From the NCBI RefSeq assembly GCF_053078305.1, contig NZ_CP166879.1: a stretch of 64,000 bases of DNA; one strand, given 5' to 3'. Positions 17,898-26,327 of this stretch are shown piece after piece. A program made the position numbers and the translations under genes. The notes beneath the pieces were generated by a model, which saw nothing but the letters and a program-made list of their open reading frames with translations, was not told the origin of the DNA and did not search any database. Each line of letters starts with the position of its first letter. Positions within the stretch are counted from its first letter, which is position 1.

Positions 17898-20910
<3,013 letters not shown>

Positions 20911-20915
20911 ACACT

Positions 20916-21335
20916 GCCGGATGCGGCACAAGTGCCTTATCCGGCCTACAGGTCGGCAACAGTTGTAGGCCTGATAAGACGCGACATCGCATCAGGCATT
21001 GATTGCCGGATGCGGCACAAGTGCCTTATCCGGCCTACAGGTCGGCAACAGTTGTAGGCCTGATAAGACGCGACAGCGTCGCATCAGGCATTGATTGCCG
21101 GATGCGGCACAAGTGCCTTATCCGGCCTACAGGTCGGCAACAGTTGTAGGCCTGATAAGACGCGACAGCGTCGCATCAGGCATTGATTGCCGGATGCGGC
21201 ACAAGTGCCTTATCAGGCCTACAGGTCGGCAATAGTTGTAGGCCTGATAAGACGCGACAGCGTCGCATCAGGCATTGATTGCCGGATGCGGCACGAGTGC
21301 CTTATCCGGCCTACAGGTCGTGCATCCGACAACAC
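20916..21335. repeat. Tandem REP/BIME array, about 5 copies of a ~92-bp unit
   Basis: gccggatgcggcacaagtgccttatccggcctacaggtcggcaacagttgtaggcctgataagacgcgacagcgtcgcatcaggcattgatt recurs starting at 20916, 21005, 21097, 21189 and 21281. Confidence 0.9.
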
Positions 21336-21357
21336 CGAATTTACAGGAACACAGAAC

Positions 21358-22182
21358 ATGCAAAATATTACCCAGTCCTGGTTTGTCCAGGGAATGATCA
21401 AAGCCACCACCGACGCCTGGCTGAAAGGCTGGGATGAGCGCAACGGCGGCAACCTGACTCTGCGCCTGGATGACGCCGATATCGCACCATATCACGACAA
21501 TTTCCACCAACAACCGCGCTATATCCCGCTCAGCCAGCCCATGCCTTTACTGGCAAATACACCGTTTATTGTCACCGGCTCGGGCAAATTCTTCCGTAAC
21601 GTCCAGCTTGATCCTGCGGCTAACTTAGGCATCGTAAAAGTCGACAGCGACGGCGCGGGCTACCACATTCTTTGGGGGTTAACCAACGAAGCCGTTCCAA
21701 CTTCTGAACTTCCGGCTCACTTTCTCTCCCACTGCGAGCGCATTAAAGCCACCAACGGTAAAGATCGGGTGATCATGCACTGCCACGCCACCAACCTGAT
21801 CGCCCTCACCTATGTACTTGAAAACGACACCGCGGTCTTCACTCGCCAACTGTGGGAAGGCAGCACCGAGTGTCTGGTGGTATTCCCGGATGGCGTTGGC
21901 ATTCTGCCGTGGATGGTGCCCGGCACGGACGAAATCGGCCAGGCGACCGCACAAGAGATGCAGAAACATTCGCTGGTGTTGTGGCCCTTCCACGGTGTGT
22001 TCGGTTCCGGACCGACGCTGGATGAAACATTCGGTTTAATCGACACCGCAGAAAAATCAGCACAAGTATTAGTGAAGATTTATTCGATGGGCGGCATGAA
22101 ACAGACCATCAGCCGTGAAGAGTTGATAGCGCTCGGCAAGCGCTTCGGCGTTACACCACTAGCCAGTGCGCTGGCGCTGTAA
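21358..22182 (+). CDS. rhaD: Rhamnulose-1-phosphate aldolase
   Basis: Track ORF (331 aa) runs through the REP array; trimmed to [12 protein letters not shown] start giving 274 aa. Confidence 0.95.
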
Positions 22183-22191
22183 GGAGCAAAC

Positions 22192-22506
22192 ATGATCCGC
22201 AAAGCCTTTGTCATGCAGGTTAACCCCGACGCCCACGAAGAGTATCAGCGTCGGCATAACCCCATCTGGCCGGAGCTGGAAGCAGTGTTGAAATCTCACG
22301 GTGCGCATAACTACGCCATTTACCTCGACAAAGCGCGTAATCTGCTGTTTGCCATGGTAGAGATTGAATCTGAAGAACGGTGGTATGCGGTAGCCAGCAC
22401 TGAAATCTGCCAACGTTGGTGGAAATATATGACCGACGTTATGCCAGCTAACCCGGATAACAGCCCGGTGAGTAGCGAGCTGCAAGAAGTGTTTTACCTG
22501 CCTTAA
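22192..22506 (+). CDS. rhaM: L-rhamnose mutarotase
   Basis: 104-aa ORF recognised as RhaM (YiiL). Confidence 0.93.
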
Positions 22507-22546
22507 TGAGTTGCGGTGCCGGAAAATATCCAGCACCGCGCCTTCA

Positions 22547-23941
22547 TCAGAAGAAGTATTTAAAGCGAACGCGTGCGCCGTAACGGTCATCAGTATCATC
22601 ACCGTGTTTTTTATCACCGTCGCTATCCAGAATGGAGTAATACGTCCCGAGGTAAATATTAAAGTTCTCCATATCCATCACATTAGCGAACTGATAAGAC
22701 GCATGAATGGTGTGAATGGAGTACGTCCCTTCATCATCAATCCAGCAGTCGTTATCACAAACTACACCGCTGAATTCATCAATCTTATTGTGCGCGTAGA
22801 TATAACCGAGCTCGAAACGTTTCCACAGCGCGTTAATCCCGGCAGTGAAATCTTTCTCATTATTAGCATCTAAATAGGCGGTATTAAGATTAACCACAAT
22901 GCCATTGTCCGGATCCGTTTTCAGGCCGTTCCAGGTCATGCTCATCCCATAGCCGGTACGATCGGACTGATCGACAAAATTACCCTTGCTATCGGTATAA
23001 CCATAAGCATTATTTACCACGTTCGCTTCCATCGCTGCGGAAACGGTGAATTCTTCCGTCGGCGACCAGGCAATTACTGGGCGCAGATAAGCAACATTTT
23101 TCTGCTGCTCCATATCGCGTCCATGATAATTACCGTCATTATATAAAGATGTTCCGTCTTCAAGTAACGTATTTAATTCAAAATACCAGTTATCGAGTTG
23201 TTTGCTGACGAGGAAATTACCGCCAGCGTTAGAGCGCCCGCGGCCCTCTTTCATCATATAGATATAACCGCTGCCATCGTCATAAAGATCGTTCGCAGTA
23301 TTACCGGAATGTTCAACAAAGGTATCCTGATTCAGCGGGAACATATCGTAGGCTTCAAAACGGCCTACTTTGACCTTCCAGTCGTTTTCTTTACCAAAGA
23401 AGAATACCGCATCATCGATATTTACTGAACCGTGCATATCACCCAGCGGTTGTGCGGAGAACCCGGCGAAATAACCGTTGTCCATCTTTCGCATACCGTC
23501 AAAACCTAACAGAATACGACCATTGAGATTCCACTGTTCATTAGTGGGATCGCTATTCACATCAGCGTTGGTCATTGCCAGCAGGCCATGATTACTTTCC
23601 GCATCCATATTAAATTCTACGTCGCCGTAGATTTTTAAATCGCCATAACCTGAAAGCAAAAGATTAGGTGAGGTGGCATTTTTCTTTGCAGATTCCGCCG
23701 TTGCCTGTCCATTTACCGGCGTATTGCCCTGAGCGGCCTTAATTTCGCGGATCTCAGCGGCTTGTTGTGTCTGCAGCTGTTTAACCTGGCTCTCTGCTTT
23801 TGCCGCCCGCATTTCTGCCGCTTCCAGGCGTTCTTCCAGCAATGCCATGCGTTGTTCCAGCGTTAAATGCTGTGTTTTTGCCATACCGGTACTACATGCC
23901 AATAATAAACCGATGGCTAAAGATAATGTCGATTTTTTCAT
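22547..23941 (-). CDS. Putative outer-membrane carbohydrate-type porin with N-terminal coiled coil
   Basis: 464-aa ORF; N-terminal signal peptide (MKKSTLSLAIGLLLACSTGMA); heptad-like LEQRMALLEERLEAAEMRAAKAESQVKQLQ segment; Y/G/N/D-rich amphipathic body ending in aromatic ...RFKYFF as expected of a beta-barrel OMP; not recalled at this position in K-12. Confidence 0.6.
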   Translation of the reverse strand: MKKSTLSLAIGLLLACSTGMAKTQHLTLEQRMALLEERLEAAEMRAAKAESQVKQLQTQQAAEIREIKAAQGNTPVNGQATAESAKKNATSPNLLLSGYGDLKIYGDVEFNMDAESNHGLLAMTNADVNSDPTNEQWNLNGRILLGFDGMRKMDNGYFAGFSAQPLGDMHGSVNIDDAVFFFGKENDWKVKVGRFEAYDMFPLNQDTFVEHSGNTANDLYDDGSGYIYMMKEGRGRSNAGGNFLVSKQLDNWYFELNTLLEDGTSLYNDGNYHGRDMEQQKNVAYLRPVIAWSPTEEFTVSAAMEANVVNNAYGYTDSKGNFVDQSDRTGYGMSMTWNGLKTDPDNGIVVNLNTAYLDANNEKDFTAGINALWKRFELGYIYAHNKIDEFSGVVCDNDCWIDDEGTYSIHTIHASYQFANVMDMENFNIYLGTYYSILDSDGDKKHGDDTDDRYGARVRFKYFF

Positions 23942-24418
23942 TATTTACGTTCCCTGAAATAAAGGAGGCCCTACGCTTTCCAAAAGGAATACGTATATAG
24001 AGAAATATAAAGCGTGCACTTTCGAATTTTTAATCCAACTTCAGCAGGCCGATGGATAGTATCCCGCCGCATAATATGAGTAAATCCGCTGATTTCCTGG
24101 AACGTGAGGAATATAACAATAGTGCCGTTTTTAACTAAATATCGTAAAAAATATTAGATATGATTCAAACTGACTCATAAGCCACAAATATAAATAACGT
24201 GGCAGCAAAATATCCGCGACAGTTAAACATTCACAAAATCATTAAATAATAACTCTTTATTCACAAGATTTATTTTACCTACTAATATGTGCCTTACGCC
24301 GCAAAATTTATCCTTCACTCTGCTTTATATTGTCACGACTTCACGACATATCCGCGCTCATCACAAACCCGCCCCGCTATTACAATTAACTGAAATATTT
24401 TTTCATGGAGTCCGATTA

Positions 24419-24865
24419 ATGGCAGCTCTTACTGCAAGCTGTATTGACCTGAATATTCAGGGCAATGGCGCTTATTCCATTCTGAAGCAGTTAGCGACAA
24501 TGGCGTTACAAAACGGTTTTATCGCCGACTCACACCAGTTCCTGCAAACCCTGCTGCTGCGCGAAAAAATGCACTCCACCGGTTTTGGTTCTGGTGTCGC
24601 CGTGCCGCACGGTAAAAGCGCCTGCGTTAAACAACCGTTCGTGTTATTCGCCCGCAAAGCGCAGGCTATTGACTGGAAAGCCAGCGACGGCGAAGACGTC
24701 AATTGCTGGATCTGCCTCGGCGTGCCGCAAAGCGGCGAAGAGGATCAGGTCAAAATCATCGGCACACTGTGTCGCAAAATTATCCACCAGGATTTTATTC
24801 ACCAACTGCAACAGGGCGACGCCGACCAAGTGCTTGCCTTGTTAAATCAAACCCTCAGCTCATAA
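24419..24865 (+). CDS. frvA: PTS fructose-like EIIA component
   Basis: Track ORF 192 aa; trimmed to MAALTASCIDL start giving 148 aa; conserved phosphorylation His in GVAVPHGK. Confidence 0.9.
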   Translation: MAALTASCIDLNIQGNGAYSILKQLATMALQNGFIADSHQFLQTLLLREKMHSTGFGSGVAVPHGKSACVKQPFVLFARKAQAIDWKASDGEDVNCWICLGVPQSGEEDQVKIIGTLCRKIIHQDFIHQLQQGDADQVLALLNQTLSS

Positions 24866-24875
24866 GGAAGTGGCG

Positions 24876-26327
24876 ATGGAGTCATCCTTACGTATTGTCG
24901 CGATCACCAACTGCCCCGCCGGGATCGCTCACACCTACATGGTGGCGGAAGCCCTGGAACAGAAAGCCCGTTCTCTCGGCCATACCATAAAAGTGGAAAC
25001 TCAAGGGTCCAGCGGCGTTGAAAACCGCTTATCCAGCGAAGAGATTGCCGCTGCCGATTACGTGATTCTCGCCACCGGGCGTGGCCTGAGCGGTGACGAT
25101 CGCGCACGGTTTGCCGGGAAAAAAGTTTATGAGATTGCCATCTCCCAGGCGCTGAAAAATATCGATCAGATTTTCAGCGAATTACCGACAAACTCGCAGC
25201 TTTTTGCCGCAGATAGCGGCGTGAAGCTTGGCAAACAGGAAGTACAAAGCGGCAGCGTGATGAGCCACCTGATGGCGGGCGTCTCTGCGGCGCTGCCGTT
25301 TGTCATCGGCGGTGGTATCCTGGTGGCGCTTGCCAACATGCTGGTGCAGTTCGGTTTGCCGTATACCGATATGTCGAAAGGCGCGCCGTCGTTTACCTGG
25401 GTAGTTGAATCCATCGGTTACCTTGGCTTCACCTTTATGATCCCCATCATGGGCGCTTATATTGCCTCGTCGATTGCCGATAAACCGGCTTTCGCTCCGG
25501 CGTTTCTGGTTTGCTATCTGGCGAACGACAAAGCGCTGCTCGGCACCCAGTCGGGTGCGGGATTCCTCGGCGCGGTGGTGCTGGGGCTGGCGATTGGCTA
25601 TTTCGTCTTCTGGTTCCGTAAAGTCCGTCTTGGCAAAGCATTACAACCGCTGCTCGGTTCAATGCTGATCCCGTTCGTTACTCTGCTGGTTTTCGGCGTG
25701 CTCACTTACTACGTTATCGGACCGGTGATGTCCGACCTCATGGGCGGGCTACTGCACTTCCTCAATACCATTCCTCCATCAATGAAGTTTGCGGCAGCGT
25801 TTCTGGTCGGTGCGATGCTGGCGTTCGATATGGGCGGCCCCATCAATAAAACCGCCTGGTTCTTCTGCTTCTCACTGCTGGAAAAACACATTTATGACTG
25901 GTACGCCATCGTCGGCGTTGTCGCGCTGATGCCGCCCGTCGCGGCGGGTCTTGCGACGTTCATTGCGCCCAAACTGTTTACCCGACAGGAAAAAGAGGCT
26001 GCCAGTAGTGCCATTGTGGTCGGTGCCACAGTCGCAACCGAACCGGCTATTCCTTACGCTCTGGCAGCTCCGTTGCCGATGATTACCGCCAATACGCTGG
26101 CGGGCGGTATTACCGGCGTGCTGGTGATCGCTTTCGGAATCAAACGTCTGGCACCTGGTTTGGGTATCTTTGACCCGCTGATCGGCCTGATGTCGCCGGT
26201 GGGTTCGTTTTATCTGGTGCTGGCGATTGGCCTCGCGCTGAACATTTCATTCATTATCGTCCTGAAAGGATTGTGGTTACGCCGCAAAGCGAAAGCCGCG
26301 CAACAGGAGCTTGTCCATGAACATTGA
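24876..26327 (+). CDS. frvB: PTS fructose-like EIIBC component
   Basis: 483-aa protein from ATG at 24876 (track starts at an upstream GTG); AAGGAAG Shine-Dalgarno; polytopic. Confidence 0.9.
   Translation: MESSLRIVAITNCPAGIAHTYMVAEALEQKARSLGHTIKVETQGSSGVENRLSSEEIAAADYVILATGRGLSGDDRARFAGKKVYEIAISQALKNIDQIFSELPTNSQLFAADSGVKLGKQEVQSGSVMSHLMAGVSAALPFVIGGGILVALANMLVQFGLPYTDMSKGAPSFTWVVESIGYLGFTFMIPIMGAYIASSIADKPAFAPAFLVCYLANDKALLGTQSGAGFLGAVVLGLAIGYFVFWFRKVRLGKALQPLLGSMLIPFVTLLVFGVLTYYVIGPVMSDLMGGLLHFLNTIPPSMKFAAAFLVGAMLAFDMGGPINKTAWFFCFSLLEKHIYDWYAIVGVVALMPPVAAGLATFIAPKLFTRQEKEAASSAIVVGATVATEPAIPYALAAPLPMITANTLAGGITGVLVIAFGIKRLAPGLGIFDPLIGLMSPVGSFYLVLAIGLALNISFIIVLKGLWLRRKAKAAQQELVHEH

Follow-up and report, generated by a model that had tools for sequence, protein, structure and literature searches.

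A chromosomal paralogue of the RafY porin beside the rhamnose genes, carried by about half of Escherichia coli genomes

Introduction

RafY, as Ulmke et al. reportedly found in 1997, raises the permeability of the outer membrane to maltose, sucrose, raffinose, and maltodextrins. In TCDB, RafY (1.B.15) constitutes a family of 16-strand oligosaccharide porins (PMC4827864). The title of a paper by Andersen et al., cited in the reference list of PMC4827864, bears on the selectivity of RafY; going by that title, the term 'glycoporin' may overstate how selective RafY-type channels are. The rafY gene lies downstream of rafRABD; E. coli O157:H7 is devoid of rafRABD, yet possesses a homologue called 'rafY2' (PMC4809568). 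GlyP, a RafY-family porin from Klebsiella pneumoniae, is controlled by the LacI-type repressor GlyR, and its up-regulation confers a gain in nutritional fitness on a K. pneumoniae strain lacking OmpK35/36 (bioRxiv 10.64898/2026.03.29.715108).

The present analysis concerns a window of 64,000 nucleotides of E. coli DNA (contig NZ_CP166879.1, RefSeq assembly GCF_053078305.1), in which an initial annotation, made from the letters alone, had placed a porin-like gene between rhaM and frvA. The ORF is an intact outer-membrane porin gene, a chromosomal RafY paralogue, and an ordinary annotated accessory gene, since it occurs beside the rhamnose genes in roughly half of all E. coli strains and K-12 has lost its copy. 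The identification is correct yet already known, the family dating from 1997, the gene being annotated in thousands of genomes, and rafY2 figuring in the O157:H7 literature. Taken as a whole, the locus very probably encodes a chromosomal RafY paralogue acting as an oligosaccharide-permeable outer-membrane channel, ancestral at rhaM and deleted in K-12 lineages.

Gene, composition, and family assignment

The porin coding sequence spans 22547-23941 on the minus strand (464 aa, ATG start, stop codon at 22547-22549), is referred to as 'rafY2', and bears the RefSeq label 'carbohydrate porin'. According to the ORF list, it is convergent with rhaM (22192-22506), as initially annotated, and divergent from frvA (24419-24865). 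Its lower GC content relative to the neighbouring genes, also pointed out in the initial annotation, is borne out (45.2% versus 51-56% in rhaM, rhaD, rhaA, frvA, and frvB, with 50.4% for the whole window), and the body of the protein is indeed rich in Tyr, Gly, Asn, and Asp (10.9% D, 10.1% G, 9.8% N, and 6.5% Y), ending in RFKYFF.

A Pfam search assigns residues 104-464 to Porin_8 (PF16966, 'Porin-like glycoporin RafY') over the complete model (positions 1-372 of 372; E = 2.2e-153, 511 bits), a family matched by all 49 aligned homologues. The strength of this match, together with dN/dS values of 0.04-0.10 against orthologues, indicates that the ORF is not a chance frame. Besides matching the RafY-family profile over its full length, the protein displays the other marks of the family, namely a signal peptide, a predicted outer-membrane barrel with some 16 strands, and an aromatic residue at the C-terminus. 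The family is small, comprising 235 representative clusters at E ≤ 0.001, many of them fragments, among 1.84 billion proteins. Compared with the raf-operon porin of NZ_CP063068, where the gene order is regulator, alpha-galactosidase, MFS permease, GH32 invertase, and then porin, the protein is 78% identical (86% positives) across 450 aa. Such a raf operon with its porin, arranged as the rafRABD-rafY of PMC4809568, occurs both in a tRNA-Phe island of E. coli and on plasmid pUMNK88_K88.

The initial annotation had likened the protein to sugar-specific porins such as ScrY, a likeness that holds for porin character and appears to extend to the Sugarporin_N-like helix but fails for the barrel, which belongs to the Porin_8 RafY family and gives no profile match to the LamB/ScrY family. 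The Pfam search of the porin at E ≤ 10 contains no LamB domain, neither the porin nor a 49-sequence profile matches any LamB or ScrY chain in PDB at E ≤ 10, the porin matches no OprB profile or sequence, and the AlphaFold2 model shows 16 strands instead of the 18 of the LamB/ScrY barrel. A channel of LamB/ScrY (or OprB) type, 18-stranded and with an internal sugar-binding 'greasy slide', could nevertheless draw on the resemblance of the N-terminal helix to the ScrY-type Sugarporin_N extension and on the ability of RafY, said to have been reported by Ulmke et al. in 1997, to complement lamB and scrY mutants. It could also draw on TCDB, which sets the sugar porin family nearest to the RafY family (PMC4827864). 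With no LamB-family match and 16 strands against it, this alternative is largely refuted as far as family membership is concerned and highly improbable overall. A separate NCBIfam match to FcmC (E = 0.17, far short of the cut-off) was discarded as a spurious coiled-coil hit, and no other NCBIfam model fits the porin.

The N-terminal region

Residues 1-21 (MKKSTLSLAIGLLLACSTGMA; 23879-23941, minus strand), with a predicted cleavage site before KT, look like a Sec signal peptide when read from the sequence, in keeping with the initial annotation. An LLAC motif in this segment prompted a lipoprotein reading, which was rejected because Cys16 is replaced by Ala or Asn in the Citrobacter and Kluyvera orthologues (LLLVANTGFA before KT), so that a lipobox is unlikely.

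The coiled coil claimed for the N-terminus is recovered by two approaches. Residues 25-70 keep to one heptad register, with hydrophobic residues or Ala at 11 of the 14 a/d positions versus at most six in the other registers, and AlphaFold2 returns a single long helix over residues 28-70 (pLDDT 81-88). Delimited from heptads, AlphaFold2, and Pfam as residues 26-70 (LTLEQRMALLEERLEAAEMRAAKAE...; 23732-23866, minus strand), the predicted periplasmic helix looks like an extension of the Sugarporin_N type, Sugarporin_N being the periplasmic N-terminal extension of ScrY-type porins. The Pfam match of residues 27-54 to Sugarporin_N is weak (E = 0.06); among the 49 aligned relatives, 17 match at E ≤ 0.1 and 7 at E ≤ 0.001 (best, 5.9e-07), and these seven suggest that the helix is a Sugarporin_N module. 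The module appears to be shared with ScrY-type porins without defining the barrel family, and distant RafY-family members of 350-390 aa are devoid of the N-terminal helix. Residues 71-97 (23651-23731, minus strand) then form a low-confidence linker (pLDDT < 50), variable in length and sequence among the homologues.

The barrel domain and the putative pore loop

The barrel domain comprises residues 98-464 (22550-23650, minus strand) and terminates in the aromatic RFKYFF. The AlphaFold2 model, computed from a 49-sequence alignment, displays 16 long β-strands between residues 100 and 463 (mean pLDDT 81.9, pTM 0.72), in agreement with the β-barrel that the initial annotation had read from the C-terminus. 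Sequence searches of PDB with the whole porin, its N-terminal 98 residues, and the 49-sequence profile found no relative with a solved structure, and the fold is therefore prediction-based.

A long conserved segment, residues 195-240 (RFEAYDMFPLNQDTF...GYIYMMKEGRGRS; 23222-23359, minus strand), connects strands 5 and 6, and DSSP assigns it no long strand in the model. The segment contains E196, D206, Y228, R234, G235, and R236 and is flanked by G193 and G241; all eight residues are invariant or nearly so among the 49 homologues, and most of the family invariants lie within 195-240. By analogy with L3 of the 16-stranded general porins, the segment is probably an in-folded constriction loop lining the pore.

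The mature porin has just two cysteines, a CxxxC pair at residues 394-398 (VVCDNDCW; window 22745-22762), which the AlphaFold2 model puts in a loop of low confidence connecting strands 13 and 14. The raf-operon RafY has an equivalent pair (VVCNNGCW), and the two residues may form a surface-loop disulfide.

Flanking DNA and candidate regulatory elements

The convergent stop codons of rhaM and the porin gene are separated by a 40-bp gap, in which RNA folding places a hairpin at 22512-22540 (-28.1 kcal/mol, z = -5.8 on the minus strand; -21.5 kcal/mol, z = -3.8 on the plus strand). The hairpin displays no clear U-tract and the terminator scan gave no call for it; judged from its predicted fold and position, it is probably a terminator shared by the rhaM and porin transcripts. 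K-12-type genomes have another hairpin (TGTGCCAGAGATGCCTCCGGCACA) at the corresponding spot after rhaM.

On the other side, the divergent intergenic region between the porin and frvA starts (23942-24418; 477 bp, 35.8% GC) is expected to contain the promoter and 5′ UTR of the porin gene. In alignment, the porin upstream region shares conserved blocks with those of Citrobacter and Kluyvera, and the start region and ribosome-binding site are kept across the genera. A pattern scan discloses a CRP-like site, TGTTATATTCCTCACG (24103-24118, minus strand), which departs from TGTGA-N6-TCACA at two positions and lies 162-177 nt before the porin ATG. A single such match in 479 bp is not significant alone; in an alignment of six upstream regions (E. 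coli, Citrobacter, and Kluyvera), both half-sites stay invariant against an average column identity of 60% elsewhere, and the putative site suggests catabolite control of the porin. A 5′-UTR hairpin (CGTATTCCTTTTGGAAAGCG), conserved-looking in the alignment, was rejected on account of a fold no better than that of shuffled sequences (z = -1.1). The Rfam search of 22300-24600 gave no match, and a generic promoter/terminator scan returned no more sites than in shuffled sequence.

Within the rhamnose cluster itself, the rhaA-rhaD gap (window about 20910-21357) is some 450 bp long both here and in the K-12-type genome, as against about 175 bp in O157:H7. The spurious ORFs in this gap translate to one repeated motif of a kind typical of REP/BIME repeats, and the number of REP elements seems to be variable.

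Genomic context across genera

The synteny sample comprises six homologue-encoding contigs. Citrobacter species, C. rodentium, and Kluyvera possess orthologues (81-85% identity) that are likewise convergent with an adjoining rhaM, their far flank being occupied by an HTH-cupin regulator and azlCD instead of frvA. Other arrangements include (i) another Citrobacter, with the order frvRXBA-azlDC-regulator-porin-(GH4/PTS/GntR)-rhaM; (ii) Klebsiella grimontii (L012, 100-5715), with a LacI regulator, a GPH-type MFS permease, and a β-helix (NosD/Beta_helix) protein between porin and rhaM; and (iii) Buttiauxella, with a more distant homologue placed after an ABC-transporter/GH13/GH130 cluster, a context that fits the general association of the RafY family with oligosaccharide use. 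The recurrent position beside rhaM across genera argues that the porin is ancestral at the locus and was deleted in K-12-type lineages, not inserted in the others.

The same linkage could be read as functional, with the porin as a dedicated channel for rhamnose-containing oligosaccharides (plant rhamnogalacturonan or bacterial polysaccharide fragments) serving the rha genes. Consistent with this, rhaM adjoins the porin in Escherichia, Citrobacter, and Kluyvera despite the differing opposite flank (frvA versus HTH-cupin/azlCD), the Klebsiella genes between porin and rhaM encode a LacI regulator, a GPH-type permease, and a β-helix protein, and IncI-gamma/K1 plasmids took rhaD-rhaM-porin as a single block. 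However, the porin is convergent to rhaM, with its own promoter on the far side and a strong hairpin in between, an unrelated GH4/PTS/GntR module parts the two genes in the other Citrobacter, and no known E. coli rhamnosidase adjoins the porin. Furthermore, free L-rhamnose fits through OmpF/OmpC, K-12 uses rhamnose without the porin, and RafY, the closest characterised relative, serves raffinose and sucrose. Nothing apart from the conserved rhaM linkage favours a rhamno-oligosaccharide channel, which is quite unlikely, and it seems equally doubtful that the linkage reflects function beyond inherited gene order.

Distribution and history in E. coli

The strain variability suspected in the initial annotation is extensive: among 5426 complete E. 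coli genomes, 2543 (47%) carry the porin, a carrier being defined by at least 80% of the rhaM-porin-upstream segment at the site, and 2828 (52%) display the K-12-type empty junction, the two states together accounting for 99%. That K-12 has no gene here, as the initial annotation supposed, agrees with the K-12-type junction, in which rhaM and frvA are spaced by 300 bp with no gene in between. By BLASTN, the segment replaced in K-12-type genomes, comprising the porin and its proximal upstream region, spans 22508-24230; 1723 bp stand against 111 unrelated bases, a filler in which no porin remnant was found. Compared with a K-12-type genome, the flanks of the window are 89.6% identical on the frvA side (24231-24911) and 95.3% on the rhaM side (22100-22507); these unequal identities point to two junction haplotypes of old date or to recombination on the frvA side.

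The B2-type genomes keep the porin, but the entire frv operon and a 5′ portion of yiiG are deleted directly beside it (L005, 5843-6750). In some of them a frameshift cuts the porin into pieces of 113/122 aa and 342 aa (L017 and L018, 2636-4029), which indicates that the protein is dispensable in some lineages; the protein cluster of the 342-aa piece holds 496 sequences, and the full-length cluster at 90% identity holds 3990. Within E. coli, the dN/dS ratio amounts to 0.05-0.10; in comparisons with Citrobacter and Kluyvera, where synonymous divergence is saturating, it falls at 0.04-0.06. Such low values indicate long-term purifying selection on a functional porin protein.

These data also bear on whether the gene is a silent or decaying relic, intact-looking but not usefully expressed and being lost by deletion or frameshift. 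The frv operon next to it is generally regarded as cryptic, the porin is lost outright in 52% of E. coli genomes, the 496-sequence cluster represents the frameshift-split allele of B2-type genomes, and the searchable literature yielded no experiments on the E. coli chromosomal copy, expression data included. The relic reading is contradicted by the purifying selection seen both within E. coli and against Citrobacter/Kluyvera, by the 3990 full-length sequences, and by the preservation of start region, ribosome-binding site, and upstream blocks across genera, all of which make it improbable compared with a functional, lineage-variable porin.

Of the roughly 5600 E. coli records that match 22100-24400, only 10 do so with at least 99% identity, the best at 99.3% (isolate GPT24-02), and the window seems to represent a sparsely sampled E. 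coli lineage. In IncI-gamma/K1 conjugative plasmids, a rhaD-rhaM-porin block (CP057400.1, 6812-12775, corresponding to window about 21358-23941; porin at 98.1% nucleotide identity) adjoins GH32 hydrolase and MFS transporter genes; mobilisation seems to have carried off the chromosomal porin along with a sucrose/fructan-type module.

Proposed function and significance

In the favoured reading, a RafY-type oligosaccharide channel, the porin precursor would be exported by Sec with removal of the 21-residue signal peptide, and BAM would recognise the C-terminal aromatic signal RFKYFF and insert the 16-stranded β-barrel into the outer membrane. The 45-residue amphipathic N-terminal helix would remain periplasmic, most likely as a three-stranded coiled coil beneath a trimer, as in ScrY and DcaP, whereas the long, conserved segment that follows strand 5 and precedes strand 6 would probably fold into the lumen and set the pore size. 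Such a channel would allow passive diffusion into the periplasm of di- to tetrasaccharides and of other solutes too big for OmpF/OmpC, from where they would be carried inward by inner-membrane transporters. A conserved CRP-like site upstream probably places the gene under catabolite control. Historically, Escherichia, Citrobacter, and Kluyvera inherited the porin at the rhaM end of their rhamnose clusters, and a 1.7-kb deletion took it from lineages including K-12. Of this scheme, family membership, the predicted barrel fold, population distribution, synteny, and purifying selection follow from the present data, while trimerisation, the part played by the loop, substrates, and regulation are inferred.

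No cognate catabolic operon adjoins the E. coli gene, and its expression may be low, as for the cryptic frv operon next to it. A bolder proposal, in which the porin is a conserved 'reserve' large channel of Escherichia, Citrobacter, and Kluyvera that compensates for the loss of major porins, is speculative and on the whole rather unlikely; in a weaker version, the cross-genus rhaM linkage may point to a functional tie to rhamnose-containing glycans. If the reserve role were true, presence or absence of the porin would alter the nutritional competence of E. coli on oligosaccharides and bulky solutes, and the channel could make up for the fitness that antibiotic-resistant strains forfeit by losing OmpF/OmpC, as reported for GlyP. 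The discovery value is small and the practical interest modest; the locus offers a clean, approximately 50:50 presence/absence polymorphism for an outer-membrane channel of E. coli, with the gene missing from the laboratory reference strain.

Comparison with known porins

ScrY and LamB (Pfam LamB, TCDB 1.B.3) are likewise outer-membrane channels for oligosaccharide uptake, and ScrY possesses an N-terminal periplasmic coiled coil of Sugarporin_N type, as predicted for the porin described here. The 16-stranded trimeric porins DcaP from Acinetobacter baumannii (PDB code, 6eus), OprP, PorB, OmpU, VhChiP, and OmpF show 8-14% identity to it, with no profile-level sequence match, and serve other substrates (dicarboxylates, phosphate, ions, chitosugars).

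RafY is much closer, both proteins being 464 aa long with 78% amino acid identity, matching Porin_8 over the full model, and sharing a common architecture of signal peptide, coiled-coil helix, linker, and barrel ending in RFKYFF. At the DNA level the two genes are about 80-90% identical, with a GC content of 40% in rafY versus 45% here. Whereas rafY is the last gene of the mobile raf operon, located on conjugative plasmids or the tRNA-Phe island, the gene described here is a standalone chromosomal copy with its own promoter and a position conserved across genera.

GlyP is likewise a chromosomal RafY-family porin of an enterobacterium and an alternative, larger channel; its operon comprises a regulator, a permease, and a hydrolase, whereas none of these adjoins the E. 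coli gene. A Klebsiella homologue with 75% identity near rhaM, accompanied by a LacI regulator, a permease, and a hydrolase, displays a gene order resembling that of the glyR/glyP operon (bioRxiv 10.64898/2026.03.29.715108), and the 2026 preprint on GlyP suggests that such porins can affect nutrient competition and the cost of porin-loss resistance (bioRxiv 10.64898/2026.03.29.715108).
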